This document shows, one piece after another, positions 3,473 through 52,136 of a DNA stretch of 52,136 bases. The position numbers were made by a program, and so were the translations under genes. The notes beneath the pieces are model-generated. The model was not told where the DNA came from and searched no databases. It saw only the letters and a program-made list of their open reading frames with translations. This stretch comes from a virus: positions 1 to 52,136 of the IMG/VR virus record IMGVR_UViG_3300033412_000022; one strand, written 5' to 3'. Position 1 is the first letter of the stretch; each line of letters opens with the position of its first letter.

Positions 3473-3573
3473 TGCTGACTGTCTCCTGAAAGTGTTAGCA
3501 ACCCGCCCGCACCGGCTACCGGCAAAGCCTCGGAAAGAGATGGCGCTGAGTACGCGAGCGGGTTGCTGATCCA

Positions 3574-12897: not shown

Positions 12898-12898
12898 C

Positions 12899-13348
12899 CT
12901 ACTCTCGCCCCGCTGGCCCATGCACTTCCAGCGAGACGCGCAAACGTAGATAACTAATCGCCTCCGCCAAATCGGTTCCCTGGCTCTCCCCTGGCTGAAG
13001 CGGGACATACGGCGGCAGAACGCGCCCGCGAGAGGCGTCCACGCGCTCGGCAACCTCCTGCGCCTGCTCTAGAAGGCGAAGCAACAGGCGGGTGTCGGAC
13101 GTGTCAAGCTGGTCTATCGAAAGGGGTTCCGGGTCCGGCAGCGCGTCCGGTTGGATGCCCTGCCCCTGCATCCCCTGGATCGCCGCCGCCACCTCATCCC
13201 CGGCAACCGTCAGCGCCTGTTCCGCCTCCGCCGTCAGCGTTCGGCCCTTCTTCGCCAGACCGCGCGCCCAGCGAGCGTACTTGAGCGCCTTAACGCAATG
13301 ACCCAGAGCGCGCGATAGCTCCGTCCTGCTTTCCGCTGTGGTTGTCAT
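12899..13348 (-). CDS. Hypothetical protein
   Basis: ATG 13348 has an ATGA overlap with the upstream HTH gene. MTTTAESRTELSRALGH... Confidence 0.5.
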   Translation of the reverse strand: MTTTAESRTELSRALGHCVKALKYARWARGLAKKGRTLTAEAEQALTVAGDEVAAAIQGMQGQGIQPDALPDPEPLSIDQLDTSDTRLLLRLLEQAQEVAERVDASRGRVLPPYVPLQPGESQGTDLAEAISYLRLRVSLEVHGPAGRE

Positions 13349-37272: not shown

Positions 37273-38698
37273 TGTTGTTCTGGTCCTCTCGCTCCGGGTC
37301 GTTCGGATCGGCGTCGTCTTCGGGGTCGGTATCGTCTTTCGGGCGGCCAACCGGCGCGCTCCCCGTGTGCTTCACGGAGGCGTCTTCCTCGGTTATCCAG
37401 CCGCGGTCCACCTTCTGGATAGTGGTTTCCACTTCGATCTGCTCCGCCTCCGCCTCGGCCTTGCGGTCCGCCGGGAGGATAGGCGCTTCCTCCACTTTCG
37501 CGGTTCGGTTCAGTCCGAGGAGCCGGAGATGGAGATTGGATGCCCATACCACCGCGTAGTTGACGGCGAACCGCAGGAAGGAGTATTTCTGCGCCTGGGT
37601 CCGCATCTGATGCTGGGTGTACGCCTGTGTTCCGCCGTCCGTGATGCCGAGCATGGCGGGGAACTGATCGAGACCCATGACCATCCGGTGGCGGCGCATC
37701 TTGAGGATAGGCTCCAGCGCGTCCAGACCCGCGCCGCCTTCCAGCACTTTCCCATCTCCGCCCTTCGGGACAACGATAGGGTCATCCGGGTTGACTGTTT
37801 CGAGGAGGGTGCAGAAGTTATCGAACTCCTGTTGCGCGAACTCGTAGGGAGTGAGATTCTCGCCGCCCGGCCCCGCCCCTTTCAGGATGTCCGGATTGTC
37901 CTTGGCGTATTGAACGGTCTCCGTAAACGGAAAGTAGAACAGTTCGTGCGGGTATGCCCACCCCCGCAGGATGTCCGAGAGGTTCATCTCCTGCGCCAGG
38001 TCTTTGAGCCCCTCGGAGAGGAACGCGCTGGCAAGCGGCTCGCCATACGGGTTGTCCTCGTCGCCATCAATCGCGCAGGCCAGCACCGTCTCCGGGTCCA
38101 GGTCCTCGGTATTACCCCACTGCTTGAGTTTGCGCCCTTCCTCGGTGTCCACATAGTCCGCGGAGAGCGGTTCCCAGATAACCACCTTCGCGACGCCTTC
38201 CAGCGGATTGCCGGGTATACACTCGGCGCAAAGCAATCCTTTCGCGCTCGCCTGACGGGTCAGGGAACGCTGGAAGGCGGGCAGTCCGCCGGGGTATCCT
38301 TCCCAGAAGGTTTTCAGGAGGTCGGTAGCTACGGAGTCCGTCTCCTCAACGACTTCGGGTTTGCCGTTTGTTCCAATCCGGGTGATGGTCTCAACGGCGG
38401 TCAGGGAAATGTCCGGCGGCGCGAAGGACAGGGACTTGTCGTTACTGAGCGCCATCTTCGCCATGGAGTGAATGGTAAAGAGCAGGTCCAGCAGTTGGAG
38501 CGGCGCTCTGCGGTAGAAGTTCTGGAGTCCCGTTACAGGCGTGCGCTCCGCTTCCCCGATAAGGCGCGCGGTCATGGCGTCCCAGCCGCGGCGCGGCACA
38601 ATGCCGATGCCTTTGGGGTAGCCATATTCCGGGCGAGTGAGGCGGGTAATCCCTTTCTTAGCCATAGTTAGCGTTTCGCGCGGATGCCACCGGCTCAA
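37247..38698 (-). CDS. Portal protein
   Basis: About 470-480 aa, between terL and the protease, with an acidic C-terminus. The start is either TTG 38698 (TTGA overlap with the terL stop) or ATG 38665. Confidence 0.75.
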   Translation of the reverse strand: MSRWHPRETLTMAKKGITRLTRPEYGYPKGIGIVPRRGWDAMTARLIGEAERTPVTGLQNFYRRAPLQLLDLLFTIHSMAKMALSNDKSLSFAPPDISLTAVETITRIGTNGKPEVVEETDSVATDLLKTFWEGYPGGLPAFQRSLTRQASAKGLLCAECIPGNPLEGVAKVVIWEPLSADYVDTEEGRKLKQWGNTEDLDPETVLACAIDGDEDNPYGEPLASAFLSEGLKDLAQEMNLSDILRGWAYPHELFYFPFTETVQYAKDNPDILKGAGPGGENLTPYEFAQQEFDNFCTLLETVNPDDPIVVPKGGDGKVLEGGAGLDALEPILKMRRHRMVMGLDQFPAMLGITDGGTQAYTQHQMRTQAQKYSFLRFAVNYAVVWASNLHLRLLGLNRTAKVEEAPILPADRKAEAEAEQIEVETTIQKVDRGWITEEDASVKHTGSAPVGRPKDDTDPEDDADPNDPEREDQNNNDTNRQKQ

Positions 38699-40479
38699 CG
38701 TCGGCGACGGATGGAGCGAACCAGTGAGGTGGGACGCATCCCGGCGGGCGCGTCGTTCGTATCGAAAATGAAATCGGGCGCGGCGGCAAGCACAAAGCCG
38801 TCGCCATCATCGCAGGAGCGTTTCTTGCGCTTTTTGAAGTCGTCCTTAGCCTCTATCTGCTTGACGGAAATCCCCTGCCAGTTGACGTATCCGTAGGTGC
38901 GTTCGCACAGGTCGGCTTCGAGGGCATCGGGCGGGCGAACGATAGCGAGACGCTTAATGCTCTCGGCGGCATGGGCATACATCTCAGTGGCCCGATTACG
39001 ATAACTTTTCTCATCATGCGGGTTGCCGCCAAAATGGACTTCGATAATCCGCAGGTCGGCGAACAGGTCCTGTAGTTGCGCGTCCGCGTTCAGGTTGTCA
39101 ATGACGCCAGACCCGAACCCTCCGCCGCCGTCTATGCGGAAGTGAAGGCTCGTTACTCCCTGCTCCGACAGCCAGAGCGCCGCGGTCTTTGCCTGCCGCG
39201 TGTATTCACCGCTGTCCTGCTGGGCGAGCTGCCCCCATCGCCATACCCTGCCGCTCCAGCGAACATAGATAGTCCCGTAGTCCTTGCCGAACCTAGCCGC
39301 GTCAATCCCGATACGCGCCCAATTGGGATCGTCAATTGCCGGATCTCGGTCTTTTGACGCTTCGTATCTCCCGACCGGACAAAAGGTGTTATCGGCCAGG
39401 TTCGCCGGAGCGATGCCGCGCACGCGGAATAGGAACTCCGCGTCAGGTTTCCAGTGCGTAAGAGCAGGTAGAGCGCGGCCCTTATAGAGGACTGGATACG
39501 GGACGGTGAAAGTGTGGTTGTCAGGGTCATCGGTTTCTACCGGCTCGCAGTGGTCCTCAATCATCGAGAGAACATAATCACGGCGCACGGCTCCGGGAAC
39601 GAGTTCCTTGCCCGCCACCACGTTCGGATGGTGCAGGCAGGAGATGCGGAAACTTCGGGTGTTGGATCTGTCTTTTTGCTTATGGAAACGGGAACTTCGA
39701 GTCTCCGGGTTCGCGAACATGAGAACAATGGCGATGCCGCCCGATGTCATGGATTCGATAGCGTTAAAGACATAATCATCTACAGCTTCCGCTTCATCCA
39801 CGATAAACATGAGGTGTTCCCCATGCTGACCATGGACACGATGCGAGCCTTTATTGCCGCTGTTATCGGTCGCTCTGCCTGCTGCAAACCACGTAGGGGA
39901 TGGGGTCTTTATCTCGCAGGTTTCGAGTATTCTGCCAGGGAGGTTCTTACCCTGCCTATCGTCCTTGATTTCTTTCCAGAGAAGCTGCTTTATCTGATAA
40001 CTTGTCGGGGCGAACGTGTAAATGATGGGCCGGAAGTTATCGAAGAAGTGCGAAAATATGCCTGCGGCAAGCTTTGTCTTTCCGACAGTATGGCCAGCTT
40101 CGACACGGATAACGTTTTGGATAATGTCGCCGGGCGTCCAGTACAGCAGATCCGCTTCGGCGACTTTCCCGAGTTCAAAGTCTCGCCGCTCATGGAGCTG
40201 AAGCAGCGCCAGATTGTAGGCTTCAATAACCTCCGCCTGACCGGGCTTATCCATTGTCCCTCGCCAGGGCGTCCATCCAAGTTTCTCCGTGATGTAATCA
40301 ACCGCCTTGAAGCGGTAGCGGCTGTTCTCTTCCTTCCCGAACGTATCAGCAAGCCTGGCTGACCTAATACCCAATACCGCCGGGTTATCACTTGGGGCGG
40401 CCTGCTGGTCTGGGTAAATCAATTCTGCTCCAACGCCCTTCAACGTTTTCGAGAATTGCGGCGCGTAAAGACTCGTCAT
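38695..40479 (-). CDS. terL: Terminase large subunit
   Basis: Walker A GHTVGKTK and Walker B LMFIVDEAE; 594 aa; lies upstream of the portal gene. Confidence 0.85.
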   Translation of the reverse strand: MTSLYAPQFSKTLKGVGAELIYPDQQAAPSDNPAVLGIRSARLADTFGKEENSRYRFKAVDYITEKLGWTPWRGTMDKPGQAEVIEAYNLALLQLHERRDFELGKVAEADLLYWTPGDIIQNVIRVEAGHTVGKTKLAAGIFSHFFDNFRPIIYTFAPTSYQIKQLLWKEIKDDRQGKNLPGRILETCEIKTPSPTWFAAGRATDNSGNKGSHRVHGQHGEHLMFIVDEAEAVDDYVFNAIESMTSGGIAIVLMFANPETRSSRFHKQKDRSNTRSFRISCLHHPNVVAGKELVPGAVRRDYVLSMIEDHCEPVETDDPDNHTFTVPYPVLYKGRALPALTHWKPDAEFLFRVRGIAPANLADNTFCPVGRYEASKDRDPAIDDPNWARIGIDAARFGKDYGTIYVRWSGRVWRWGQLAQQDSGEYTRQAKTAALWLSEQGVTSLHFRIDGGGGFGSGVIDNLNADAQLQDLFADLRIIEVHFGGNPHDEKSYRNRATEMYAHAAESIKRLAIVRPPDALEADLCERTYGYVNWQGISVKQIEAKDDFKKRKKRSCDDGDGFVLAAAPDFIFDTNDAPAGMRPTSLVRSIRRRR

Positions 40480-41176
40480 CTACAGTGTCCGCGAGGCCAT
40501 GGTAGAGTTCAAAGCCGAACTCCTGCAGCTTTTCGCGCAGGGCATTGAGCGTGATGCTGCCCTCCTGGCGACTGCGCTGGATCTTCTCGATCAGCGCGCC
40601 AATACTGACAATGAAACTGCCGACCTTGAGAATGTCCGACACTTCCCGCGGCTTATTCTGAAACGCAATCGGTGCGGGGACTGGCGGCGGTTCGGGGTAA
40701 ACCTCCATCTTCGGAGGTTCAGGCCATCCGCCGCGGTAGTGGTGCTGTACTCTCTCCACCGTTTCCCGGTACGCTTGCCACTCGGCTTTCCAAGTCGCGT
40801 ATCCTTCCTGCCACTTCTCATAGGTTAAATGCCACTCGGAAACGGCGTTGCCAAACGCGGGATTGAAGGATGCGTGCCAACCGAGGAGCGCTTCGGTGTT
40901 TTCGTCATACCGTTCAATGTAATCCAGAATGAGCGCCCGGAGCAACTGAACTTCGGGAAGCAGGTCTTCCTGATTCTCTTCCTCCTGGAACGACTCGAGC
41001 AGTTCCTTGATGCGCGGCCTGCGGATCGCCGAGTACCTGGAACGCAGACCATGCTTGATCGGGGTTGCGCCGCCATGTAATTTACAGCGACCTTCGCCTA
41101 CATGGTTCGTCCCCCACCCAGCAGGACGCTGGCAAGGTTGCTTGCTTTTCGTGTTTGCTCCACAAACATCTGTCAT
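40388..41176 (-). CDS. terS: Terminase small subunit (tentative)
   Basis: The N-terminal CGANTKSKQPCQRPAGWGTNHVGEGRCKLHGG motif is common in small-terminase-like proteins, and the gene lies directly upstream of terL. Confidence 0.55.
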   Translation of the reverse strand: MTDVCGANTKSKQPCQRPAGWGTNHVGEGRCKLHGGATPIKHGLRSRYSAIRRPRIKELLESFQEEENQEDLLPEVQLLRALILDYIERYDENTEALLGWHASFNPAFGNAVSEWHLTYEKWQEGYATWKAEWQAYRETVERVQHHYRGGWPEPPKMEVYPEPPPVPAPIAFQNKPREVSDILKVGSFIVSIGALIEKIQRSRQEGSITLNALREKLQEFGFELYHGLADTVDDESLRAAILENVEGRWSRIDLPRPAGRPK

Positions 41177-41669: not shown

Positions 41670-41699
41670 ATCGTATCTTTAGCAACAGCGCATAGTCAA
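41670..41699 (-). promoter_or_regulatory. Candidate late promoter TTGACT-18-TACGAT
   Basis: -35 at 41699..41694 overlaps the stop of the HTH gene; -10 at 41675..41670. Two hairpins follow in a leader of about 150 nt. Confidence 0.4.
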
Positions 41700-42037
41700 T
41701 TTGCACTATCTTTGCTGTTTTGCGCTCCTTGCAGACCCTCTTTGACCTTTTCGCGTATCGCCGCCTGATACCGGAAGTAGATGCGCCTGACAGTATTCCT
41801 GTGGCATCCGGTGAGGCGCGCGGCATCGCTGAAACTGCCCGTCGCGAGGTAGGCGTCTATCATCTGCAACTCTGCACTGGTGATGTTAGAGAGCGGCGGT
41901 ATGGAGCGCGTGGCGGTCAATCCCGTAACCCCCCGCTTCCCCCACGGTAGGCCATGAATGCCACCGGGATAAACATCACGATTAGCGCCACCAGGCACAC
42001 AGCCCGGATCAGAATCCTGAACGGGAGTAAAATCCAC
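41696..42037 (-). CDS. HTH DNA-binding protein (candidate late-gene regulator)
   Basis: ELQMIDAYLATGSFSDAARLTGCHRNTVRRIYFRY is an HTH (resolvase / IS-type). The N-terminal extent is uncertain. Confidence 0.5.
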   Translation of the reverse strand: MDFTPVQDSDPGCVPGGANRDVYPGGIHGLPWGKRGVTGLTATRSIPPLSNITSAELQMIDAYLATGSFSDAARLTGCHRNTVRRIYFRYQAAIREKVKEGLQGAQNSKDSAN

Positions 42038-42038
42038 T

Positions 42039-45000
42039 TCATCCTGTTACCTCCTGGTCAATTGTTACCCTTACTCTTTCCTCTTCCAGGAACGCCGTCA
42101 GCCTTGCTATGTCGGCGGCGCTTGGGATGGGGGAGAGGTTGCCCAGCATATCGGTGAGGGCGGCGTCTTTCGTCTCACCGAGACCGAGTTCAATACCACC
42201 TGCGATGTGGACAGCAACCTGCCAGGTAGGTTTCCCGCTCACCTTCGGCTGAGACCATTGCGCCGTGAGGGTGTCATCGTTAAGGTCTTCCGGTTCGATC
42301 CCCAGAGCCTCGAACATGGTCACGGTTTCCGGCGGTGTATCTGGTGTATCTCCGGTTTTGGGGGAATCCTGAGATACACCAGGCATTTCCCTCTCAAAAC
42401 GTGTATCTGGTGTATCTTGTGTATCTTTTTCGGGGTTAGCCTCTCGCGTGTGCGTAGGCGCGTGCGCGTTAGGCGTGTATGCGCCTGTGTCATGCGCGCC
42501 CGCATATGCGCGTGTGCGCAGGGACTGCGAAAAAGATACACAAGATACACCAGATACACTTTTCTCTCTCGTAGGGTCGGTGTATCTCGCCAATTCCGGC
42601 GAAATCGGAGATACACCGAGATACACATTCTCTCCCCCTGGAATCGCGTCCGGTGTATCTCGTGTATCTTGAGATACACTTTCGCCGGAACCGCTAAAAG
42701 GGTCATCCGGTGTATCTCGTGTATCTTGTGTATCTGTTTTCCGGGTGTTTTGCGGGGGCGATTTCAACTCTAAATCGTTGGGCTGAGCGCCCTTTCCCCC
42801 TACCGATTCCAGGTAGTAGCGCGCCACGCGCTGGTAGGCTTTGCCCTGGCGAATGCGCTTCCCGCCGTAGACGCGCTCCATCTGCTGCCGGAGTTTCGTG
42901 CCCAGACTGACCCGTCCGCCGCGCGTGTTCTCGCTGACAATATCATGGTCAATGGCGATTTCGATCAGGTCTTCCACGCCAATCTCCGCCGTAGACCAGC
43001 GTTCCCACCAGGCTCCGACAAACCCTTGCCACCGCTCGCGTTCCGGGTCCGCGCGGTCGTACAGGTCCTCGCGATTCGCCAGGAAGTCAGTTTCCCCGAT
43101 AGCATTCATTACCCCGCCAATGGCGCGGCAGTAGCCTCCGAATCCCCCAATCGGCTTTCCGTCCCAATGGGGCCGTCCGGCCTTTATCCAGCGACGCAGG
43201 AGGATGACACAGGCCGCCACCAGATCGGGGCGTTGCTCCCAGACGAACGCGCCGAGGTCGGGAATCGTGAACCCGCTCCGGTCCTCGGGCTTCTCCTCCT
43301 GGCTGTCCAGGCGAATCCAGATAGAGCGGCGCGGGAAGTCGCCTTCCAGTTGGATATTGTTCCCGGTGAGGACCCAGGCGCACCGAACCGGCAGGCGCTC
43401 CATATCGGAGGTTCCAAGCCGCCGGTGCGCCATCTCCGGCGCGGTAATGGCAAGGGCCAGCGCGCCGCTGTCCAGTTTGAACTTCAGATTATCCAGCCAG
43501 ACATATTGCGGCGATTCACCGAGAGCCGCCCCGAGCAATTTGCGCCATTCGTCCTCATCTTTCTTCGACGGGCAGTAGGTCGCTCCGGGTTTCTCGCCGG
43601 TCGCTATGGCAAGGCAGGTTTCCGCGAGCAGAGACTTGCCAGAGCCTTGTACGGGCGCGTCAATGAGGTGTAGAGGCGTCGCGCCGCTGATATAGGGTCG
43701 CAGGAAGGGCAGGAGAATTAAAGCCAGGGCATGGGTTTTGCTCGCCTTGTCCGCGAACGGGAAGTCTTTCAGGACCCGATTCAGGAGCAGGTCTTTCGCC
43801 CACGTCAGGTTCTCGTCTGTCGGCGTTGTGTCTGGCAGTTCCCGGTCATCGGCGGGCTGGTAATAGACCGCCGCGTCTGGCAGGTAGCCGGGTGTGGTCA
43901 CCAGCTCCCCGCTGGGGCCAACCACGGGAGCCGCCACGATTGCTTCCAGAAGCGGGAAGTGTTGCGCCAGATCCGGCAACACCAGCAGGTCTTCGACGAC
44001 GGTGCGCGGCGGCGCGATGTGGGTGATGTTGCCCCGTTCATCCTCCGCCACCCAGTTGGCGACACGGGCAAGGCGTCCCCGAAGCTCGAGAACGCCAACA
44101 GAGTGGATGCGGGCCCTGCCGTGCCGGTCTTTCACCACCTGAACCAGCCCGCGGTCACGCGAGAAGAGGGTAGGGCCATCCTCCCCGCTGTTGGCGACAA
44201 GGAGCGCCTTCAGGCCATCGGCGGTGATGTCCGGCAGCGGGCGGTCTACCGTCTGGATCGAAACCAGGCCGGCCTGCGGGGAGACATCGGCAGCGTCGGC
44301 GTCTCCCAGGGTGTCTACTTTCGGAGTCGGCGCGGGCGTCCGCTTTCGGGTGGCGGATTGCTTTGGCGCTCCCTGTTGAGTATTGGGTGTTGAGTGTTGA
44401 GTGTTAGGCGCGGGCCGCGTCCCTCCGCCAGACCACCCGGCGGATTGTTCTCTCGCCTTCATCAGTTCCCGGAGCGCTCGCCAGTCGTTGCTCTTGCAGG
44501 AGTTGTGCGAGCATCCGAATGCCGCCGCGCCGGTCGCGGTCACATACAGCACCGCATCCGGCGACTTGTGGCTGCCATTGAACGGGCAGTCTATTTGCCA
44601 CTTGGTTCCGCCCTTGTGCGGTTCGCCGCTGGGGAGCGCGAGACCAACCGCGCGCGCCCACCCTTCCATATCGAAGGGTGCAGACGGCCCGGTGTAGTCA
44701 CTGCTGGTGGATGGCGCTGGTTTCTGCTCTTGCGGCGCTTCGGCGGCCAGGGCTTCCAGTTGCTGCCTGGTGACAAGCATCACCTCCGGCGGCGCATAGA
44801 GCAGCTTGGACAGGCGGTGTGGTCGGTCGGGAGTATCGTCCCCTTTCTTCGCCACTGTGCCGTACAACTTAAAGATCCGCCCCGCGTTGAAATTCCCGGT
44901 GTCAACCTGGATGCTCTCGCTGTCGAACCGGGCGGCGAGCGCCTTCAGGCACTTCTCAAACACCAGCCGGGTGGCGTCGTCGTTGGGTTCGTCGCAGGCA

Positions 45001-45533
45001 ACCAGGAGGTGGCCGCCGTTGCCGCTGTCCGCGCAGACGATGGAGCGTTCGGGCCAACCGCGCTCAACAACGAGGTATTCCCGAATCTTGCGCGCGAGCT
45101 GCAGCGCTGCCTTGTGTTCGGTATCGCTTGCGCTGATTCCCGCCGGTCGCTTTGCGTCGGTGTCAATGGGGAGCCACCAGCGGCGGATGATGTCCACATC
45201 GCTGGTCTGGGGCTTGAGATAGTCCGTTGTTCTGTTGGCGCTCCGGGCGAGCAGAGCCGGGTTTATCTGGTTAAGCACCAGGTAGATCCCGTGGGATGCC
45301 TGCATCTTCGTGCTGGTGGCGTCCTTCACCAGGTCCGCAATATGTTCCGGGTCGTAGTACCCGGCAATAGCGTTATCGCGACCTCGGAGTGCTCCGAGGC
45401 CGCGCAGTTCGACGATCCCGGTGTCTCGTCGCAACGTCGCAACAGTCCGGGCAATCATGTCTCTATCGGGCAGAATTTTAATGCTCACAGTGTTTGTGCT
45501 GTCGTCCTTAAAATCGGTTGCAAACTCTCCCAC
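42039..45533 (-). CDS. Primase-polymerase (AEP) fused to an SF3/D5-like helicase, with a repeat-rich C-terminal region
   Basis: AEP motifs WLPIDTD and SGNGGHLL; Cys/His cluster CPFNGSHK...CSHNSC; Walker A APVQGSGKS. C-terminal DTQDT/DTRDTPD repeats. Confidence 0.8.
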   Translation of the reverse strand: MGEFATDFKDDSTNTVSIKILPDRDMIARTVATLRRDTGIVELRGLGALRGRDNAIAGYYDPEHIADLVKDATSTKMQASHGIYLVLNQINPALLARSANRTTDYLKPQTSDVDIIRRWWLPIDTDAKRPAGISASDTEHKAALQLARKIREYLVVERGWPERSIVCADSGNGGHLLVACDEPNDDATRLVFEKCLKALAARFDSESIQVDTGNFNAGRIFKLYGTVAKKGDDTPDRPHRLSKLLYAPPEVMLVTRQQLEALAAEAPQEQKPAPSTSSDYTGPSAPFDMEGWARAVGLALPSGEPHKGGTKWQIDCPFNGSHKSPDAVLYVTATGAAAFGCSHNSCKSNDWRALRELMKAREQSAGWSGGGTRPAPNTQHSTPNTQQGAPKQSATRKRTPAPTPKVDTLGDADAADVSPQAGLVSIQTVDRPLPDITADGLKALLVANSGEDGPTLFSRDRGLVQVVKDRHGRARIHSVGVLELRGRLARVANWVAEDERGNITHIAPPRTVVEDLLVLPDLAQHFPLLEAIVAAPVVGPSGELVTTPGYLPDAAVYYQPADDRELPDTTPTDENLTWAKDLLLNRVLKDFPFADKASKTHALALILLPFLRPYISGATPLHLIDAPVQGSGKSLLAETCLAIATGEKPGATYCPSKKDEDEWRKLLGAALGESPQYVWLDNLKFKLDSGALALAITAPEMAHRRLGTSDMERLPVRCAWVLTGNNIQLEGDFPRRSIWIRLDSQEEKPEDRSGFTIPDLGAFVWEQRPDLVAACVILLRRWIKAGRPHWDGKPIGGFGGYCRAIGGVMNAIGETDFLANREDLYDRADPERERWQGFVGAWWERWSTAEIGVEDLIEIAIDHDIVSENTRGGRVSLGTKLRQQMERVYGGKRIRQGKAYQRVARYYLESVGGKGAQPNDLELKSPPQNTRKTDTQDTRDTPDDPFSGSGESVSQDTRDTPDAIPGGENVYLGVSPISPELARYTDPTREKSVSGVSCVSFSQSLRTRAYAGAHDTGAYTPNAHAPTHTREANPEKDTQDTPDTRFEREMPGVSQDSPKTGDTPDTPPETVTMFEALGIEPEDLNDDTLTAQWSQPKVSGKPTWQVAVHIAGGIELGLGETKDAALTDMLGNLSPIPSAADIARLTAFLEEERVRVTIDQEVTG
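42335..42735. repeat. Iteron-like array: 18 copies of GTGTATCT/AGATACAC (candidate replication origin inside the primase-helicase gene)
   Basis: Plus-strand GTGTATCT at 42335, 42344, 42401, 42410, 42419, 42580, 42653, 42662, 42710, 42719 and 42728. AGATACAC at 42372, 42534, 42543, 42552, 42609, 42619 and 42672. Triplets have 9-bp spacing. Confidence 0.8.
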
Positions 45534-46655: not shown

Positions 46656-47728
46656 TTAGCCGCTCTTTCCGTCTGCGCATTGTTTGCGTAGACCGGGTGC
46701 ATGGCGCTGGTGAGCGTCACTCGATCCCAAACGCCGTTGTTTTTCTTCAGCCAACGGGCGACGGGTTTGGGGAGCGGATGCGGGAGCGGGGCGTTGATAG
46801 CAACGACCAGGTATTCATCGGTGGTTCGGTCGAGGTAGATGTCGAATCGTCCTTCCTTCTCGAAAAGGCGCTTGCCTGTTTCTTCGGCTTCGGAGGAGGC
46901 TTTCATCCGGTCGAAGATGTTGGACGGGTCTGCCGGTTGGAATTTCGGCGTGGGGCCAGTAGGATTGATGTTTATTTTCGTTTCGCGACTAACGAGGTGA
47001 GGCCGACGATCCTCCGGGGTTGTTTTTGCCGGGTCGGGCCGCGTTGGGTTAATGGAAGATGTTTCCGCCCGCTTCCTCCGAGCGTAGTTGGCCTGGTAGG
47101 CGTTCATGCACTTTTTGCATTTGGAGGAGGCGCGGAACTTGCCGCGATAGTCGCAGACGGAGCATTCCCACTCTACTTCTGGTTGCGGGGTTTGAGCAGT
47201 CCCTCCTGGGGGTTCTGGAGCATCGCTTCCACTTCCGGCAACATCGCCAGGAGTCTCCGTCTCACTCCCCATAGGAACGCTATCCCGTTGTCCTGCGAGG
47301 TCGTTTCCTCCACTATCCCCAGGTCGAACTTCAGACTCTTCGCGTTGTCCTGAAGGCGCTTCAATCTCTTCTGGTTTCGTTTCCCCAGTTGCATCCTGTT
47401 CCTCCGCAGGTTCCTCGTCCCGATACCGATTGGTGTATTTCGCGTCGTTCACCAACTCCATCAGTGGGCGCACGGCAACCGCTTTCGGTATTGGCTCCGG
47501 CAGGTGCGGTTGTAGCACCATATTGGTTAGCGGATCCTCATCTTCGTCCATGCGAATCAACGAGCTGGTGAGACCCAGGCGGGCAAGACCTTCCTCAAAG
47601 TGGGCGCGCGCGGCTTCGAGGCGGACGCGACGAGCAGCGTCCGCCTCGAGCGCCTCTTCATCAAAACGGGCGTAAAGGTCAAAGATCGTTGCCCGGTTAT
47701 TCAGAATGATTTCTGCAACGTTAGCCAT
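46652..47728 (-). CDS. Acidic hypothetical protein with a central zinc ribbon
   Basis: WECSVCDY...CKKC. Start taken at ATG 47728 (ATGGCTAA overlap with the ThiF-like stop). Confidence 0.5.
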   Translation of the reverse strand: MANVAEIILNNRATIFDLYARFDEEALEADAARRVRLEAARAHFEEGLARLGLTSSLIRMDEDEDPLTNMVLQPHLPEPIPKAVAVRPLMELVNDAKYTNRYRDEEPAEEQDATGETKPEEIEAPSGQREESEVRPGDSGGNDLAGQRDSVPMGSETETPGDVAGSGSDAPEPPGGTAQTPQPEVEWECSVCDYRGKFRASSKCKKCMNAYQANYARRKRAETSSINPTRPDPAKTTPEDRRPHLVSRETKININPTGPTPKFQPADPSNIFDRMKASSEAEETGKRLFEKEGRFDIYLDRTTDEYLVVAINAPLPHPLPKPVARWLKKNNGVWDRVTLTSAMHPVYANNAQTERAAK

Positions 47729-48512
47729 TGGTGGCAGCCTTTCTTGTGCGTTTCTTGCCCGTTTGCGGGGCATCAGGCCTTGGGATGGGGATAGGCGTCA
47801 CGCGCCCTTCCAGCAGGTTAATCCAGTACCCGCAGGTGGTCAGTTCCCCGTCCCGGAAAAGCCTTTCAAGTAGGGAGAGCGCGAACGTCGCCACATGCTG
47901 ATTGATGTAGAGACCTTGCTCTTCCAGGGCTTCAGCCAGAGAACACGACGGGCGATTGTCCTCCGGTATGGTCTCGTCGAATATCTCCGGCAGAATCTCG
48001 GAGAGGTGGGGAAGCGGGCCGTCTGATTTCGTGACGAATGGCGTCCCCCGACCGAGAACAACCTGCCCGGTCTGCTGCGCGTTGGCGCAATCCAGCCAGT
48101 AGGTTGGGTAGTAGAAGTTGCGTTGCCAGTATCCGGCAATCTCCCTGCGCGCCTTTGCCGTGTCCACGCAGGTGATCGCGAAGTCCGCCCGGTCAATAAT
48201 GCGGCGCGTCTGATACTCCTCGCAGATCGCCTCCCAATCCGTGCCGAACCAGCAGTTCAGGCGGTGGGTCAGGATGTTCGCCTTGTAGCGCCCCACGTCC
48301 CCCGCCGCGAAGAGTTGGCGGCCAATATTGGACTCGCTTACCCTGTCCGGATCGAAGGTGAAGACCTGAAGGCCGTAGGGGTGGCCGAGTGCGCGCAGGG
48401 CCACATGAAGCCGCGCGAGACCGGTCAACATCTGGCTGCCGGTTCCGCCGCAACCGATCAGGTGAATCTTGATCCGCCGGGTGAGAAGGTCCGAGGGGAG
48501 GACGTGTTTCAT
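47721..48512 (-). CDS. ThiF/MoeB (E1-like) adenylyltransferase, PRTRC-type
   Basis: IHLIGCGGTGSQ Rossmann loop and FDPDRVSESNIGRQLF. The overall pattern matches my recollection of the PRTRC ThiF family. Confidence 0.75.
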   Translation of the reverse strand: MKHVLPSDLLTRRIKIHLIGCGGTGSQMLTGLARLHVALRALGHPYGLQVFTFDPDRVSESNIGRQLFAAGDVGRYKANILTHRLNCWFGTDWEAICEEYQTRRIIDRADFAITCVDTAKARREIAGYWQRNFYYPTYWLDCANAQQTGQVVLGRGTPFVTKSDGPLPHLSEILPEIFDETIPEDNRPSCSLAEALEEQGLYINQHVATFALSLLERLFRDGELTTCGYWINLLEGRVTPIPIPRPDAPQTGKKRTRKAATNG

Positions 48513-49213
48513 TTGTTCAGCACCTCCCGAACGGTCAGACCCTGCGGTATCAGATGATCATCCCAATCGAACGCCGCGCCAATCGCCGCTTTCCAGGCGC
48601 CGTCATGTCCGCCTAAGTAAGCGGTCAGGTTGTCGCCGCGGTTGGAGTGGGTGAAGTTGGTCTGGAAGAAAGCATCCTCCCAGAGCGGGATGTCCGCCGG
48701 GTTCGCGCGGTCCGGCAGGGTGATGTTCCCCCGGCACATATGCCCGTCGGCGTAGACGTTGAAGTAGGGCGCGGCAAATACCGGCGTGGTCTCGTCCGGT
48801 CGCTGTCGCCCCTGAAGCGCATAGATATAGAGGTTGGACGCGGTGGCGAGAAACAGCAAAGAGGGGTGGTTTACCTCTTCGCCGTTCACCGCCTCATCAA
48901 ACGCCTTGCGGCCCGTGCGGAAGTAGATGGTCTGGCGACGCCGGGGAGACCACCACAGAATACGCGACGGATCGGAATACAGCAGGTGCGGGTTGGTCAG
49001 GCGACGGAGCGGAGTTTCACCGCCTTCATCACTCCTGCCGACCTCGGCAAGCAGATCCGCCCATGCCGCGCGGGTGAGGAGTTCGCCCGGTCCTATCTCG
49101 CCGCCCTTCACCTTGTTCAGAGTGACCATCGTATGCGAGTCGCCCCGATAGATAAGGATGGCCTCCGTCAGGGAGAGGTGGGAACTGGTGGAGAGAACGA
49201 CATCTATATTCAC
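48509..49213 (-). CDS. PRTRC protein B-like (E2/UBC-like, tentative)
   Basis: 234 aa with an ATGA overlap on both sides. Conserved-looking PYFNVYADGHMCRGN with a candidate catalytic Cys. Confidence 0.5.
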   Translation of the reverse strand: MNIDVVLSTSSHLSLTEAILIYRGDSHTMVTLNKVKGGEIGPGELLTRAAWADLLAEVGRSDEGGETPLRRLTNPHLLYSDPSRILWWSPRRRQTIYFRTGRKAFDEAVNGEEVNHPSLLFLATASNLYIYALQGRQRPDETTPVFAAPYFNVYADGHMCRGNITLPDRANPADIPLWEDAFFQTNFTHSNRGDNLTAYLGGHDGAWKAAIGAAFDWDDHLIPQGLTVREVLNK

Positions 49214-50481
49214 GCGCGCACCTCGATTCTCTCTCCGACATAGGCGGGATTGTTAATGAGTTTCGCGCTCCAGGTCAGCGCGTAGAGAATCCTGTCGGCG
49301 AGAGCCAGAATCGCAAGCGTGTGCCGCATGGTCTCAATGGCCCACCAGAGCGTTCCCGGTTCGCGTCCGGACTGGGAGAGGTCGAAGCCGATCATCCACA
49401 CCATGTCCGTGTTCTCCACCTGTTGGATCATCTCGTTATGATCATCCATGAACCGGTCCACCCAGTCGTCCTTGTGCCACTGAATCAGGACGGGGATGGG
49501 TTGGCGGTTCTCAAAGCAATTCAGGTGGCATAGTTCGCGGTAACGCTTGGTCTTCACGCGCTTCATATCGCGAGGCTCTTGCACCAGGCGAGACAGGATT
49601 TCCGCGTCGGCAAGGATTTCCGCCGCCCATTCCCGTTCCTCGTTAAATACTCTCACACGGGCGCGGCGGATAGGCTCTGCTTGCCAGTTGTGGAACAGGG
49701 CTTCTTTGGGAACTTCGGCGAGAACAACGCCTTCGGGATCTCGCTCGTCCCAGGCTTCCTCATCCTCTTCCCGTTCCGAGTTGGCCCACTTCGGATCGGC
49801 AAGCCCCGTGGTATAGCGGAAGACATGACAGGTCAGGTCGTAGACATCCCAGGCGGCTTTCCCGATGGCCTTCTCCAGACGCTCCACGCCTTCGCCAACC
49901 ACTACATCGTGAACATGGCGGACGAGCTGCAAGCCGAATGCGCCGACACTTCTGGTTTCACGGGTGCCGTAAAATTGTAGCCAGACACCGGGTTGCCAGT
50001 CCGTGCCTGGAAGATGCTGCACATCGTCGGTGTACACAAATTTTAGGAAGCGGAAAACGCCGCGCGTATCGTCAATCCCGGCCAGGGTCGCGAGCCGGGA
50101 AATCCCGTTGTTGATGGCATCCACCAGCGGGTGGCTATCGCGGGACATCAGGCCGATGTAATCCTCTTCCTCCAGTATCCCAGCCTTCAGGAGACCCTGC
50201 GCGATATGGGCAAGCGCTACGGTGGAGTTGGACGCGCCAACATCCACCGATTTCGGCACGTCCTTCCCCAGGGCGGGAAGCGTCAGTAGATCGGGGGCAG
50301 GGATTCGGACGGGAACGGGATTTTTTCGCCGGGTCGCGCGCGTTTGACTTCCTGGCCGATTCGCCGCGCGAGCGATTGGGCCTCCGGGCTGTTGACCCAG
50401 GCCGAGACCAGGGGATGGTCCGATACCACCCCCTTGCCCGATAAGACACTCTGGATTGCCTGTGATAGTAGCTCTTCGCAT
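49210..50481 (-). CDS. Hypothetical 423-aa protein in the PRTRC protein F position
   Basis: GAGGAAG SD before ATG 50481. Assigned by position only. Confidence 0.5.
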   Translation of the reverse strand: MRRATITGNPECLIGQGGGIGPSPGLGLGQQPGGPIARAANRPGSQTRATRRKNPVPVRIPAPDLLTLPALGKDVPKSVDVGASNSTVALAHIAQGLLKAGILEEEDYIGLMSRDSHPLVDAINNGISRLATLAGIDDTRGVFRFLKFVYTDDVQHLPGTDWQPGVWLQFYGTRETRSVGAFGLQLVRHVHDVVVGEGVERLEKAIGKAAWDVYDLTCHVFRYTTGLADPKWANSEREEDEEAWDERDPEGVVLAEVPKEALFHNWQAEPIRRARVRVFNEEREWAAEILADAEILSRLVQEPRDMKRVKTKRYRELCHLNCFENRQPIPVLIQWHKDDWVDRFMDDHNEMIQQVENTDMVWMIGFDLSQSGREPGTLWWAIETMRHTLAILALADRILYALTWSAKLINNPAYVGERIEVRA

Positions 50482-50493
50482 TCCGCTTCCTCG

Positions 50494-50709
50494 CTATCCC
50501 TTGGTCGCAACCGCCCGTTTGAACTCCCACGTTTCCGTGCCATCTTTCGACTCCTTCAGGGTGAGGGTAGCATTGGTCAGGTCCGGGTAGGACTGCGCGA
50601 GAATGGCTTTAACCTGCTCCGGCGTTGACGCAGGGTTAGGATCGGCGAGCCGCATGGTGCCGTGCATGAAAATCCGGCGGGTTCGCTTCGGGGTTTCTGT
50701 GGTGCTCAT
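50494..50709 (-). CDS. Ubiquitin-like (beta-grasp) small protein, PRTRC protein C-like
   Basis: 71 aa. RIFMHGTMRLADPNPASTPEQVKAILAQSYPDLTNATL...WEFKRAVATKG ends in Gly. ATGA overlap with the parB-like stop. Confidence 0.55.
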   Translation of the reverse strand: MSTTETPKRTRRIFMHGTMRLADPNPASTPEQVKAILAQSYPDLTNATLTLKESKDGTETWEFKRAVATKG

Positions 50710-52112
50710 TCTGGATTCTCCAAAACCGTTTCGATGTCAATGCCGCGCTCCTCTGCGGTTTTGCGGAGGTGGGCCGTCAGCCATTCGCTTGGCGAGAGAG
50801 AAGCGCCGCCCTCGTCACTGTCGCGCAAAGCCTTGATGAGTTTGCGGGCAGGCGTGGGCAGCAGATACTCCTGATGGCGCCAGAGCATGGCGAGAGCCAC
50901 ATCCAGCGTCCAGTTAAGATCCCAGAGCCGGTCATCATCGCTCTGGAGGATGGTGGTAGCAATGCGCGCGCCGCCCTTTGGCGCATCTACCGCTTCCGGT
51001 TCGGCGGTCACGACCTTCGGCGCTGGTGCGGGAGTAGTAGCCACCGGCGGCGCAACGGGCGCGACAGGCTGGGTGATGGCATCAGGACTGGTGGCGGGTG
51101 GCGCGGCATCCTCTGCCTCTTCCTGCTCGCTCTCGGTTTCCGGGGTAGGTTCCGGCCCCGGCTCCGGCGTTGTCTCCGGTTCCTCAAGCGGAGGAATCGT
51201 TTCCTCGATGTCTTCCGCAGGTTCCGAGGCGGGCGGCGCGACTATCGCCGGTTCCGGTTCGGGGGCGGGAGCAGGCTCTTCCTGTTTCGTTTCCTCTGCC
51301 GCTGGTTCAAGTCCCAGCGGCAGAGCGACCTGCGCGGCCTTGGCCCGGGCTTCGTCCTCCAACTGGGAGAGGAGCGCGGCAACCCGCAGGCGCGTCTGCT
51401 TGAGGTTCAAGCCCTCTTCCTCAAGTTGTTCCGCCACCAACTGCAGCGCCGACGGATACTCCGACAGGCGGCAGAGTTCCATCGCGTGGGATTCCGGAAT
51501 GACGCCCAGGTCCACCTTGTCGCGAATGGCGAGCGGCAGATTGCGCCACAGACGGAGCCTGTTGTTGATAAGCGGCTGGGATACTTTGAGCCGTTCTCCC
51601 AGCGCGGCCTGCGTCAGGGTGGGTTCCAGCAGGAGCATCCGGTCATAGGTTGCCGCGCATTCAATCGGCGAGAGGTCGGAGCGGTGCGCGTTTTCGGCGT
51701 AGGCCGTCGCCAGGTGTTCCGCGTCGGTCATGTCCTGGACAATAATCGCGGGGATGGCAGAAAGGTCCGCGATCCCCGCCGCGCGCCAACGACGCTCGCC
51801 GGTAACAATGACATAGCGCCGGTCGGCGAGAGCGGGATGCGCGAAGTCCGCCGCCTTGTTCGCATAGCGGACGGTGATCGGCTGGATAACCCCGCGCAGA
51901 CGGAGATCGTTCGCCAGGTCTCGAAGCGCGTCAGGGTCAATGCGTTTCCGGGGATTGAGCGGCGAGTTGCCGATGTCCTCCAGACGGATCATTTCTATTT
52001 GCGGCGCGCTATTCGGCGCCGAATATTCTTCTGTGTTCAAATCGTCCTCCGGGTCATCGTGTATTGCCCTCATTGCGTCCTCGCATCGGGCGAGATAGTT
52101 GTAGGGGGGCAT
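50706..52112 (-). CDS. parB: ParB/Srx-family protein with a GERR arginine patch, an HTH, a Pro/Glu-rich linker and a C-terminal domain
   Basis: IEMIRLEDIGNSPLNPRK, VIVTGERRWRAA, and HTH LTQAALGERLKVSQPLINNRL. The start could be ATG 52112 or ATG 52073. Confidence 0.85.
   Translation of the reverse strand: MPPYNYLARCEDAMRAIHDDPEDDLNTEEYSAPNSAPQIEMIRLEDIGNSPLNPRKRIDPDALRDLANDLRLRGVIQPITVRYANKAADFAHPALADRRYVIVTGERRWRAAGIADLSAIPAIIVQDMTDAEHLATAYAENAHRSDLSPIECAATYDRMLLLEPTLTQAALGERLKVSQPLINNRLRLWRNLPLAIRDKVDLGVIPESHAMELCRLSEYPSALQLVAEQLEEEGLNLKQTRLRVAALLSQLEDEARAKAAQVALPLGLEPAAEETKQEEPAPAPEPEPAIVAPPASEPAEDIEETIPPLEEPETTPEPGPEPTPETESEQEEAEDAAPPATSPDAITQPVAPVAPPVATTPAPAPKVVTAEPEAVDAPKGGARIATTILQSDDDRLWDLNWTLDVALAMLWRHQEYLLPTPARKLIKALRDSDEGGASLSPSEWLTAHLRKTAEERGIDIETVLENPE
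52010..52025. repeat. Palindrome copy 4: TATTCGGCGCCGAATA (16 bp, perfect) inside the parB-like 5' coding region
   Basis: Same 16-bp core as copies 1 and 3. Confidence 0.85.
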
Positions 52113-52136
52113 TGTCTACCCCCCCCCCGATTTTTT
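52092..52136. repeat. Terminal direct repeat, copy 2 (identical to 1..45)
   Basis: Exact 45-nt identity with the start of the window. Confidence 0.95.

Follow-up and report, generated by a model that had tools for sequence, protein, structure and literature searches.

The window analyzed here is a 52,136-base stretch of viral DNA in which a minus-strand gene for a probable primase-helicase carries, 296–696 bp ahead of its stop codon, an array of short repeats, or iterons (Table 1). The gene is given as the maximal ORF; database gene calls begin further in, by 15 codons in P0001 and by 25 codons in the homologue P0002. Directly downstream lies the gene of a 113-aa HTH protein, which gave weak generic Pfam HTH matches and no terminase family match, followed by a probable large terminase gene (assigned by position alone, with no family match) and then a portal gene. 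The array is therefore located at the border of the replication and packaging modules, and a ParB homologue and a PRTRC cassette are found 5–9 kb upstream of it.

Table 1. Features of the iteron locus, in window positions; strand is given where one applies.
Feature	Position	Strand	Remarks
113-aa HTH protein gene	41696..42037	-	Directly downstream; alternative candidate binder, or terminase-small-like/regulatory
Primase-helicase initiator gene (predicted)	42039..45533	-	Maximal ORF, 1164 codons
C-terminal two-helix element	42054..42164	-	aa ~1124-1160, after the linker
Predicted disordered linker	42168..42794	-	aa ~914-1122; contains the iteron-encoded peptide
Iteron array	42335..42735		18 perfect GTGTATCT/AGATACAC octamers; proposed replication origin
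Outer iteron cluster	42335..42379		42335 (+), 42344 (+), 42372 (-); position conserved in L001
Core inverted repeat, left arm	42397..42432	+	Iterons 42401, 42410, 42419 at 9-bp spacing, plus T5 tract
95-nt GC-rich spacer	42433..42527		Proposed site of melting or structure extrusion
Core inverted repeat, right arm	42528..42563	-	Iterons 42534, 42543, 42552
Outer iteron clusters	42580..42735		42580 (+), 42609/42619 (-), 42653/42662 (+), 42672 (-), 42710/42719/42728 (+)
SF3-type helicase core and C-terminal helical/winged-helix region	42795..44282	-	aa ~418-913; Walker A APVQGSGKS
Predicted winged-helix DNA-binding motif	42804..42977	-	aa ~853-910; candidate iteron reader
Predicted wing tip AYQRV	42825..42839	-	aa 899-903; modeled in the loop that connects the wing strands
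Cys/His zinc-binding domain	44427..44681	-	CPFN..H...C.HNSC; folded in the model
AEP-like primase domain, N-terminal	44724..45488	-	aa ~16-270; motifs LPIDTD, SGNGGH, NAGRIFKLYGT

An exact search of the window found 18 copies of the octamer GTGTATCT, 11 on the plus strand and 7 on the minus strand, all within 42335–42735 and none outside it, whereas shuffled sequence averaged 0.54 copies and never exceeded 3. Allowing one mismatch added 16 sites, every one outside the array and in total close to the 19 expected by chance, which leaves the array with perfect copies only. Three triplets are spaced at exactly 9 bp (42401/10/19, 42534/43/52, and 42710/19/28). Since the same tandem spacing occurs in intergenic arrays of relatives, it is not a codon artefact. 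The plus-strand triplet 42401–42426 and the minus-strand triplet 42534–42559 form the cores of a 36-nt inverted repeat with 97% complementarity, whose arms enclose a spacer rich in alternating purine/pyrimidine runs. The G+C content of the spacer is 0.64–0.68 in 50-nt windows, vs. 0.40–0.48 over the iteron triplets. Together, spacer and arms have a predicted fold of −64.7 kcal/mol (z = −13), with a 36-bp stem and a 95-nt structured loop possible, and spacers of this kind also occur in L038 and L135. The initial annotation had described 18 octamers in both orientations within 400 bp, three exactly spaced triplets, and opposed arrays flanking a GC-rich alternating purine/pyrimidine stretch, and had proposed a comparison with shuffled sequence; its description was reproduced on each of these points. 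Cumulative GC skew, also proposed there as a check, gave weak support: the cumulative G−C minimum of the circular genome falls at ~43.0–43.5 kb, but a second GC-skew minimum lies near 30 kb. A scan found no promoter-like or terminator-like sites inside or adjoining the array, and an Rfam search returned nothing in it.

The window primase-helicase had no match in Pfam or NCBIfam, its gene region had none among GenBank phages by megablast, and a profile search of PDB sequences returned spurious repeat-protein matches only. Its PHROG matches were 10537, 29234, and 19930, the last described as "DNA polymerase/primase." The full-length AF2 model, however, matched ASFV PrimPol, poxvirus D5/E5, SaPI PriRep1/PriRep5, and SCCmec Cch at E-values of 1e-5 to 3e-7, each with a Foldseek probability of 1.0. 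On the strength of this model, the protein is identified as an AEP primase and SF3 helicase with a predicted winged helix, the architecture of self-loading initiators. The AEP-like domain is modeled with pLDDT mostly >85, aligns along its whole length to ASFV PrimPol, and has D109/D111, SGNGGH, and R222-P-H-R as invariants in family alignments. This N-terminal domain is common to proteins with other helicase modules, and the P4-family primase/D5_N models (PF08706, PF19263), which do not match the window protein, were found only in distant proteins sharing the N-terminal ~340 aa. The Cys/His domain that follows conserves C301, H307, C326, H328, and C331 (P0001 numbering, alignment A4). The region at aa 418–913 (pLDDT mostly >85) has an SF3/D5-like hexameric helicase core with Walker A GSGKS, and its helicase-class matches were PriRep1 (7pds), the SaPI5 primase-helicase (7ola, 7om0), Cch (5dgk), and D5/E5 (probability 1.0, E-values of 1e-5 to 1e-6). 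The region ends in a predicted winged helix (helix-helix-strand-strand, pLDDT >90), which is both the last conserved block of the family and the final folded element ahead of the array. Searched alone, this fragment gave weak Foldseek matches to ORC/Cdc6, Cdt1, and SCCmec LP1413 (E-values of at least 0.6), and a model of the C-terminal 405 aa gave no significant Foldseek match. Beyond the winged helix, the linker has pLDDT <50 in both models, and the C-terminal two-helix element reaches 64–81.

Because the ORF continues through the array, translation turns the iterons into a passenger linker, predicted to be disordered, by which a small C-terminal domain is tethered. The minus-strand frame reads the array in both orientations, and the one octamer yields four translations, namely DT (10 copies), xVS (6), RYT (1), and VYL (1). 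Of these, the peptides DT(Q/R/P) and GVS had been named before, both correctly, the latter as part of a (G/S/C)VS series, while RYT and VYL had been missed. Every copy is read as GAT-ACA or GTA-TCT, codons that are rare in this genome (GAT 0.39, ACA 0.11, GTA 0.12, TCT 0.09), and the octamer codons of the array are without synonymous variation.

The closest homologue, P0002 of locus L001, is 70% identical overall and has the same array layout, but carries GGGAATCT in place of GTGTATCT at corresponding positions and in both orientations. The whole array has thus been switched in concert, with the same two bases altered in each iteron and both unrelated peptides changed as a result (DTx to DSQ, GVS to GNL/GES). 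Outer clusters at 42580–42735 are partly conserved in L001, where the final triplet is absent and one copy is in the opposite orientation, and the counterpart of arms and spacer preserves the stem-loop potential (−61.6 kcal/mol, z = −11). Identity to P0002 is 84% over aa 440–915, just 23–47% in the linker, where the reading frame is maintained across several indels, and 55% over 77 aa of the C-terminal element. From the four translations, the invariant rare codons, the concerted change to GGGAATCT, and the predicted disorder, it follows that selection acts on the double-stranded DNA rather than on the peptide. The initial annotation had argued for such a constraint, and had suggested looking for homologues that keep DTxDT over scrambled DNA; the homologue does not keep it. 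Within aa 440–915 there are just two runs of at least four consecutive substitutions, and one of them changes the wing tip from AYQRV to TFHHA in the homologue, whose iterons are GGGAATCT. We infer that the wing tip, as placed by the model, helps to set iteron specificity. The window and L001 would represent a natural specificity swap involving two bases per iteron and five predicted-wing residues, which makes initiator–iteron recognition directly testable. When the C-terminal domain, winged helix, and linker were searched by tblastn against 120 loci (L001–L120), only L001 was recovered. A homologue of the HTH protein is also encoded in L001, with a recognition helix of CHRDTVRRAYWRY as compared to CHRNTVRRIYFRY in the window. 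The notion that the two HTH proteins are unrelated was rejected, since the L001 homologue sits behind an inserted 95-aa ORF.

Over 40 related loci have 8-mer arrays of their own, again in both orientations; these are positioned at the stop codon or within the 3′ part of the gene, and the family as a whole employs more than 35 distinct iteron words. Of the 32 arrays with at least five copies in viral contigs, 20 are found at the stop codon and 7 inside the ORF toward its 3′ end (27 in all), and in metagenome contigs, scanned with a 7-sequence alignment, 22 of 23 lie at the gene end, 19 of them in-ORF as in the window, counts that are drawn from phylogenetically non-independent loci. Coupling of array and gene extends to bacterial and archaeal genome contigs, and read-through of the putative origin is common in the family in both domains. 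Lineage-specific arrays directly follow the part of the gene coding for the winged helix, and the C-terminal domains encoded after in-ORF arrays differ by lineage, being zinc ribbons or other folds. Downstream genes are varied (Mor-like HTH, ParB-methylase, HNH, helicase, integrases, terminase, or none), and the common denominator of the loci is the primase-helicase with its winged helix. Central regions of most relatives are AT-rich, unlike that of the window. Covariation of winged helix and iteron was unreadable in the ACCGTTGA/ACCATTGA/ACCATTCA group, whose tails are ~50% identical and too divergent. A scan of viral contigs with GTGTATCTNGTGTATCT proved too loose and returned mostly an unrelated AT-rich marine group, along with L038 and L101. 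Although invisible to Pfam and NCBIfam, a large family emerges as self-loading initiators combining AEP primase, SF3 helicase, and a predicted winged helix. Its members occur in phages as well as in other mobile elements, both bacterial and from methanogenic archaea, and their proposed origins are found inside the 3′ end of the initiator gene or right at it.

Taken together, these observations make it probable that the array is an iteron replication origin bound by the primase-helicase's own winged helix. An iteron origin had been put forward as a candidate in the initial annotation, and comparison lends it support through the initiator-type fold and the dozens of relatives with lineage-specific arrays at the same place. 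On the modeled structure, the likeliest binder of the octamer is the winged helix, encoded immediately ahead of the array, rather than the C-terminal domain. We propose that the winged helix would read the octamer and that protomers seated on the two convergent core triplets could form hexamers flanking the 95-nt spacer on both sides. Distortion, melting, or stem-loop extrusion of this spacer together with its 36-nt inverted arms may follow, and would expose single strands to the helicase and AEP primase. Outer clusters might raise the local concentration of initiator or allow handcuffing of copies. Points that speak against an origin include the 64–68% G+C of the spacer, where SaPI, lambda, and most relatives have an AT-rich unwinding element, the location of the array where replication and packaging modules meet, and the occurrence of GTGTATCT ahead of terminase-small genes in viral contigs of two unrelated groups. 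An uncultivated soil phage nevertheless gains a well-argued replication origin and a candidate initiator, and origins of this in-frame kind offer a clear case in which a non-coding function dictates the sequence of a protein linker.

By analogy, the array is most likely an instance of a known origin type, represented by SaPI Rep/ori, lambda O/ori, and N15 repA. N15 RepA and P4 alpha are multifunctional primase-helicase-origin-binding proteins, and for N15 a location of the origin within the 3′ part of repA has been reported. In P4, ori and crr contain an octamer, the type I iteron, in both orientations, which is bound by the C-terminal domain of alpha. Both sites lie outside the alpha gene, and the primase domains of N15 and P4 belong to other families than that of the window protein, which has no P4-family Pfam match. 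In lambda, the origin is in the middle of the initiator gene, with iterons between the DNA-binding part and the C-terminal part; the window array has an interdomain place too, in ORF 42039–45533, at a segment with pLDDT <50 between folded parts. The likeness to lambda ori within gene O had been noted before and holds for the topology, but SaPI Rep/ori and N15 repA are closer. Lambda iterons are ~19 bp long and directly repeated. There are four to six of them beside an AT-rich tract, as opposed to 18 inverted octamers and a GC-rich spacer, and lambda O, which has no homology to the window protein, contains neither helicase nor primase and recruits host DnaB through P, whereas the window protein combines the folds of an SF3 helicase and an AEP primase. 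Extra iterons in gene O, within which the lambda origin lies, add residues to the protein (PMC7466680).

SaPI/PICI Reps (PriRep) resemble the window protein in having an SF3-type self-loading helicase, sometimes fused to a primase, and their C-terminal winged-helix domain has a predicted counterpart there. The structures of SaPI PriRep1, solved with dsDNA, and of the SaPI5 primase-helicase match the window model at Foldseek probability 1.0, although sequence similarity was undetectable (no Pfam or PDB sequence match). In SaPI Reps, the C-terminal WHD binds iterons directly 3′ of rep, and the 6–12 iterons flank a central region with at least two per side in opposite directions (PMC9371898). Opposed triplets around a central region are likewise found in the window. 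However, SaPI iterons are penta- or hexamers, whereas the window has octamers in 18 copies; they follow the rep stop codon, whereas the window ORF continues through the array (stop-proximal placement is seen in 20 viral relatives); and the central region is AT-rich instead of GC-rich with alternating purine/pyrimidine runs. In addition, SaPIs are satellites and the window element is a complete tailed phage. Another counterpart is ORF904 of pRN1 (AEP, SF3, and WH); its origin, placed immediately 3′ of the gene, consists of a ~100-nt stem-loop that must be intact (PMC4234260). According to the model, the window protein has the same three-part domain order, and the window core has a predicted stem-loop that is conserved in L001. 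In contrast to the in-ORF array, the pRN1 origin lies past the stop codon, no iterons are described in it, and pRN1 is a crenarchaeal plasmid.

It is conceivable, although unlikely, that the spacer is a GC-rich unwinding element of a different kind or that the iteron-encoded linker is itself functional. In the first case, the GC-rich alternating spacer and inverted triplets would replace the AT-rich tract, and initiation would proceed via supercoil-driven formation of a cruciform or Z-DNA; spacers resembling it recur in L001, L038, and L135. In the second, reading through the origin would have consequences of its own: the acidic linker (DTxDT…), together with the C-terminal domain, would regulate the initiator, possibly as a DNA-mimicking tail that occludes the winged helix, or possibly by linking origin firing to the transcription and translation that run through it.

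There is also a small chance that the site is an origin whose iterons are read by the C-terminal domain, the downstream HTH protein, or a host protein, with the primase-helicase recruited secondarily. Assignment of the winged helix rests on a model and its stand-alone Foldseek matches were non-significant, while the window and L001 both retain the C-terminal domain. The HTH protein could be the binder, because it is conserved in L001 and yet differs in its recognition helix. Nonetheless, arrays directly follow the ORF even in relatives in which it stops right after the winged helix. The C-terminal domain is therefore not needed for association with an array, and it varies by lineage where in-ORF arrays occur. 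In SaPI Reps, moreover, the WHD is the iteron reader (PMC9371898).

Two further explanations move away from replication, and both appear improbable. The first is a packaging signal (pac or cosB-like), with octamers that bind a small terminase, possibly the 113-aa HTH protein, and a spacer that serves as the cleavage region. Short repeats flank the cut site in P1 pac, and in the window the array is 300–700 bp upstream of the HTH gene, which precedes the probable large terminase and portal genes. Similarly, L038 has GTGTATCT and a GC-rich spacer between a primase gene and terminase-small/large genes, and AT-rich marine contigs (e.g., L014) have GTGTATCT arrays upstream of terminase-small, often near contig ends. 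Against this, arrays of the family keep a fixed place relative to the primase-helicase gene (at its stop codon or after the winged-helix part), and show no pac-type positional linkage to the terminase small-subunit gene. Their downstream neighbors are often non-packaging genes (integrases, helicase, ParB-methylase, Mor-like, or unknown), the array of L121 begins 29 bp past the primase stop codon with terminase-small 1.3 kb off, and the weak, generic matches of the 113-aa protein do not point to a terminase.

The second is a regulatory or partition array, providing operators for the downstream HTH protein in an early-to-late switch or a centromere-like site for ParB/PRTRC. A small HTH gene with a differing recognition helix is conserved after the array in the window and L001, Mor-like HTH genes follow the arrays of L144, L188, L191, and L199, and the ParB homologue and PRTRC cassette are not far upstream. 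Some plasmid centromeres are typically arrays of short repeats in both orientations. On the other hand, no promoter-like or terminator-like site accompanies the array, operators with 18 sites inside a coding sequence would be unusual, and many array-bearing relatives are without a downstream HTH gene or a nearby ParB gene; what the loci share is the primase-helicase with a winged helix.

Finally, selection of DTxDT/GVS as a peptide, with DNA identity left by recent duplication, has next to no chance of being correct: acidic/Thr-rich low-complexity linkers are common and L101 has a genuine PDT peptide repeat with synonymous variation, but in the window a single DNA word is read in four frames/orientations within a predicted disordered region, in rare codons and with zero synonymous variation, and the homologue altered both unrelated peptides via the same two bases. 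For annotation, this suggests that such "repeat proteins" are by-products, and the in-frame origins may also be useful for building replicons for organisms without genetic tools. The window sequence itself was found only in assembled contigs from one soil metagenome run.

The octamer GTGTATCT occurs 18 times by exact search of the 52,136-base window (11 copies in the plus and seven in the minus orientation), and every copy lies in a single array. Dinucleotide-preserving shuffles contained 0.54 copies on average and never more than three, which bears out the enrichment suspected in the initial annotation. A search that tolerates one mismatch finds 16 more sites, each of them outside the array; the total is near the chance level of 19, so the array consists of perfect copies only. 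Three triplets with 9-bp spacing were confirmed where they had been annotated, and one plus and one minus triplet lie at the heart of an inverted repeat, whose 36-nt arms are 97% complementary and 95 nt apart. The spacer between the arms has 64-68% G+C and is rich in alternating purine/pyrimidine runs; the triplets have the lowest G+C of the region (40-48%). As a single strand, the segment around the repeat folds at -64.7 kcal/mol (z = -13), and its equivalent in L001, the Logan contig encoding the closest homologue of the primase-helicase, at -61.6 kcal/mol (z = -11). The octamer lacks a stop codon in any frame and in either orientation. Three further open frames of 74-188 codons that cross the array are probably by-products and not genes.

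The constraint on the array acts on duplex DNA, as had been argued from the tolerance of the coding frame for both orientations, and three independent results establish this. First, the gene frame gives one word four readings: DT (10 copies), xVS (six), RYT (one) and VYL (one). Second, every copy contains GAT-ACA or GTA-TCT, codons whose shares in the large genes of the phage are 0.39 of Asp (GAT), 0.11 of Thr (ACA), 0.12 of Val (GTA) and 0.09 of Ser (TCT). Third, the closest homologue, P0002 (70% identity over 97% of the length), is encoded on L001 with an array at the corresponding place and in the same layout (two plus, one minus, three plus, a GC-rich spacer, three minus, then mixed clusters), in which all copies are GGGAATCT or its complement, differing from GTGTATCT at positions 2 and 4. 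Both encoded peptides are thereby altered, DTx to DSQ and GVS to GNL or GES. Such a joint change of two unrelated motifs cannot arise from peptide selection, whereas selection for a matching set of binding sites can produce it. A homologue keeping DTxDT over scrambled DNA would have spoken for the peptide; P0002 and L001 show no such pattern. A purely peptide repeat is thus excluded by the four readings, the codon use and the concerted switch. As a contrast case, contig L101 carries a genuine peptide repeat (PDTPDT...), in which AGATACAC runs stand among synonymous variants (cctgatact, ccagatacg), and shows how protein-level selection looks.

The product of the gene that contains the array is recognized by neither Pfam nor NCBIfam, and its PHROGs matches are 'DNA polymerase/primase' and two families of unknown function. 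A full-length AlphaFold2 model, built from 19 homologues (mean pLDDT 73), matched ASFV PrimPol, poxvirus D5/E5, SaPI PriRep1 (a structure solved with dsDNA), the SaPI5 primase-helicase and the SCCmec Cch helicase in Foldseek (probability 1.0, E 3e-7 to 1e-5). The label primase-helicase given in the initial annotation is therefore right and, judged by its modelled fold, the protein combines an AEP-type primase with an SF3 helicase in one chain and belongs to the class of self-loading initiators. A separate model of residues 760-1164 has a confident winged-helix-like motif followed by a long disordered linker, and the iterons correspond to codons within the latter. Taken alone, this fragment gave winged-helix Foldseek matches that were all non-significant (ORC/Cdc6, Cdt1, SCCmec LP1413). 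Several indels separate the linkers of the window protein and P0002, yet the frame is kept, and identity over the last ~80 residues is 55%; the linker is therefore translated, and the C-terminal element is probably functional.

Features of the window, its primase-helicase and compared contigs. Residues are numbered from the maximal ORF; the modelled database version of the protein, P0001, begins 15 residues further in.
Feature	Position	Strand	Remarks
Identical window ends	1-45 and 52092-52136		GAGATAGTTGTAGGGGGGCATTGTCTACCCCCCCCCCGATTTTTT
594-aa protein	38695-40479	-	directly upstream of portal gene
262-aa protein, HGGxSTG motif	40388-41176	-	just under NCBIfam cutoff
113-aa ORF with HTH	41696-42037		directly downstream of primase-helicase gene
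Primase-helicase ORF	42039-45533	-	1164 codons
Octamer array	42335-42735	both	18 copies
Plus triplet	42401-42426	+	9-bp spacing
Minus triplet	42534-42559	-	9-bp spacing
Inverted repeat	42397-42432 / 42528-42563		36 nt
Folded segment	42390-42570
Open frame across array	42207-42773	+
Open frame across array	42320-42706	-
Open frame across array	42448-42672	+
PRTRC cassette	47721-52112	-	directly upstream of replication genes
PRTRC ThiF-family E1-like protein	47721-48512	-	291 bits vs cutoff 145
PRTRC protein B / Prok-E2_D	48509-49213	-	above NCBIfam cutoff
PRTRC_F-like protein	49210-50481	-	weak match
ParB-family protein	50706-52112	-
N-terminal alpha/beta domain	up to about aa 270		confident in AlphaFold2 model
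Cys/His domain	aa ~285-369		AlphaFold2 model; then short disordered stretch
Helicase region	ends about aa 913		confident in AlphaFold2 model
Helix-helix-strand-strand motif	aa ~853-910		winged-helix-like; pLDDT >90 (model of aa 760-1164)
Disordered stretch	about 210 residues, after helicase region		AlphaFold2 model; pLDDT <50 throughout about 917 to 1117 (model of aa 760-1164)
Iterons	codons 933-1067		within disordered stretch
Two terminal helices	protein end, after disordered stretch		AlphaFold2 model
L001, extra 95-aa ORF	12642-12929		4-nt overlap with primase stop codon
L038, octamer array	1912-2113		IMGVR_UViG_3300046696_000053
L101, peptide repeat	3409-3497		PDTPDT...

Arrays of this kind are a property of the primase-helicase gene and not of its neighbours. 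A pattern scan of viral contigs seeded with the 19-protein alignment returned 80 loci, in each of which the most repeated 8-mer on both strands of any 400-bp window was placed relative to the primase-helicase stop codon (exact matches; ORF ends read from the matched frame, start codons not considered). At least five copies were present in 32 of these loci, which are related and not independent: 20 arrays have their start at -110 to +50 relative to the stop codon, seven are within the ORF at 200-710 bp from its 3' end, four are upstream of the gene with direct repeats only, and one is AT-rich noise. In a second, independent collection of metagenome contigs, 23 of the 55 loci spanning the gene end (again related, not independent) had at least five copies, 19 in the last 200-760 bp of the ORF, three just past the stop codon and one upstream. 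Genome contigs are likewise arranged, for example in Armatimonadetes, Dehalococcoidia, Chloroflexota and Methanoregula, the last with 10 in-ORF copies of TGCTGTAA. More than 35 different words are used across the family, in both orientations and often as opposed pairs or triplets flanking a spacer, which is AT-rich in most lineages. Tandem 9-bp spacing is found in intergenic arrays too (L146, L121, L172, L183), which rules out codons as its cause, and in one subgroup the protein end tracks the iteron (TVDTVD with ACCGTTGA, TIDTID with ACCATTGA, TIHTIH with ACCATTCA, TIPTIP with ACCATTCC). Family conservation stops at the winged-helix-like block, beyond which some members end and others go on to C-terminal domains that are unrelated, zinc ribbons among them. 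The downstream genes are also varied (Mor-like HTH, ParB-methylase, HNH, helicase, integrases, restriction-like, terminase, unknown), and it is the persistence of gene-end arrays despite such neighbours that ties them to the primase-helicase gene.

Two groups of relatives are distinctive. Loci L152, L177, L182 and L186 have shorter ORFs (~690 aa) and 5-7 copies of their own 8-mer ~200-450 bp upstream of the gene start, in direct orientation throughout in three of the four. In archaeal members (L263, L267, L273, L275, L277, L344 and L347, from Methanoregula and related metagenome contigs), the 3' part of the ORF holds 7-10 copies of TGCTGTAA or TGCAGCAA, and a multi-Cys domain resembling a zinc ribbon comes after them at the C-terminus; close archaeal relatives use different words, another concerted iteron change.

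Published work on structurally matching proteins suggests how the window array, probably the replication origin of the phage, would work. SaPI Reps self-load without a loader. Their C-terminal winged-helix domain binds penta- or hexanucleotide iterons situated immediately 3' of rep and split evenly between the two flanks of an AT-rich centre; each flank has two or more of them, and they point in opposite directions (PMC9371898). ORF904 of pRN1 (AEP, SF3 and WH) requires a ~100-nt stem-loop directly 3' of its own gene, at which its authors proposed hexamer assembly (PMC4234260). In lambda, the origin lies mid-gene in its own initiator and extra iterons merely lengthen the protein (PMC7466680). 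By analogy, the winged helix would read GTGTATCT, protomers on the convergent triplets would assemble into hexamers facing the spacer, the spacer and 36-nt arms would be melted or extruded, and helicase and primase would then start synthesis; the outer clusters may serve cooperativity or copy control. In this proposal the anatomy, the selection at DNA level, the concerted switch, the linkage across the family and the fold class are demonstrated, whereas the binder, the place of melting and the activity as an origin are inferred. Over residues 440-915 the window protein and P0002 are 84% identical, with just two runs of at least four consecutive substitutions, one of which (AYQRV to TFHHA, 899-903) falls at the predicted wing tip, a hint as to the identity of the binder. 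The cumulative G-C curve of the genome has its minimum at 43.0-43.5 kb; the support is weak because of a second minimum near 30 kb.

The window protein resembles no curated family in sequence, and the likeness to SaPI Rep/ori is one of way of working; the system falls outside the strict SaPI type, since its array lies inside the ORF and its central region is not AT-rich. The topology is like that of lambda O/ori, a resemblance pointed out in the initial annotation. An internal origin in a primase-helicase gene is also reported for N15 repA, and the octamer iterons bound by P4 alpha likewise occur in both orientations. The wider interest lies in the size and spread of an unrecognized family that includes methanogen elements, in how often read-through origins occur within it, in the natural iteron/wing swap between the window and L001, and in the unusual GC-rich spacer.

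Another reading that deserves attention is that the array is a packaging signal. It lies where the replication genes meet the packaging genes, the ORF directly downstream has an HTH, and two unrelated viral contig sets have GTGTATCT upstream of their terminase-small genes: in L038 as inverted pairs around a GC-rich purine/pyrimidine spacer directly after an unrelated primase gene, and in an AT-rich marine group as 2 + 3 direct copies, often close to contig ends. Across the family, however, array position follows the primase-helicase gene regardless of the downstream genes, which speaks against packaging. Within the origin model, it is possible that the downstream HTH protein binds the octamer; it is kept in L001, behind an inserted ORF, with a recognition helix that differs from that of the window. 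An operator or centromere is possible in principle, but no promoter-like site is present and the HTH or ParB neighbour is absent in many relatives.

In L038 the array lies between a primase gene (PHROG 1156) and the terminase small and large genes, and the contig has no other resemblance to the window; the octamer likeness may have arisen by convergence, or the two may share an origin or pac design. The apparently marine, AT-rich group (L005, L009, L014, L028, L085 and about 60 other viral contigs) has two copies of GTGTATCT 9 bp apart, a ~40-bp AT-rich gap and three copies 11 bp apart, together with a degenerate inverted copy. This array is preceded by a CCCCAGGGGG hairpin, has a terminase-small gene downstream and is often within 100-200 bp of the contig end; an origin, a pac site and a terminal region are all possible readings of it.

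The ends of the window, which stems from a soil metagenome, are identical over 45 bases, indicating a circularly closed assembly and a genome of 52,091 bp; the repeat includes a G6...C10 hairpin-like motif. The window is a tailed phage encoding portal, head protease, major head protein and tape measure, and has no close relative among GenBank phages. The 594-aa protein matched no terminase family, and its gene position suggests that it is the large terminase. In L001, an extra 95-aa ORF lies between the primase-helicase and HTH genes. Upstream of the primase-helicase gene, this tailed-phage genome encodes ParB, a PRTRC cassette and a RuvC-like protein.
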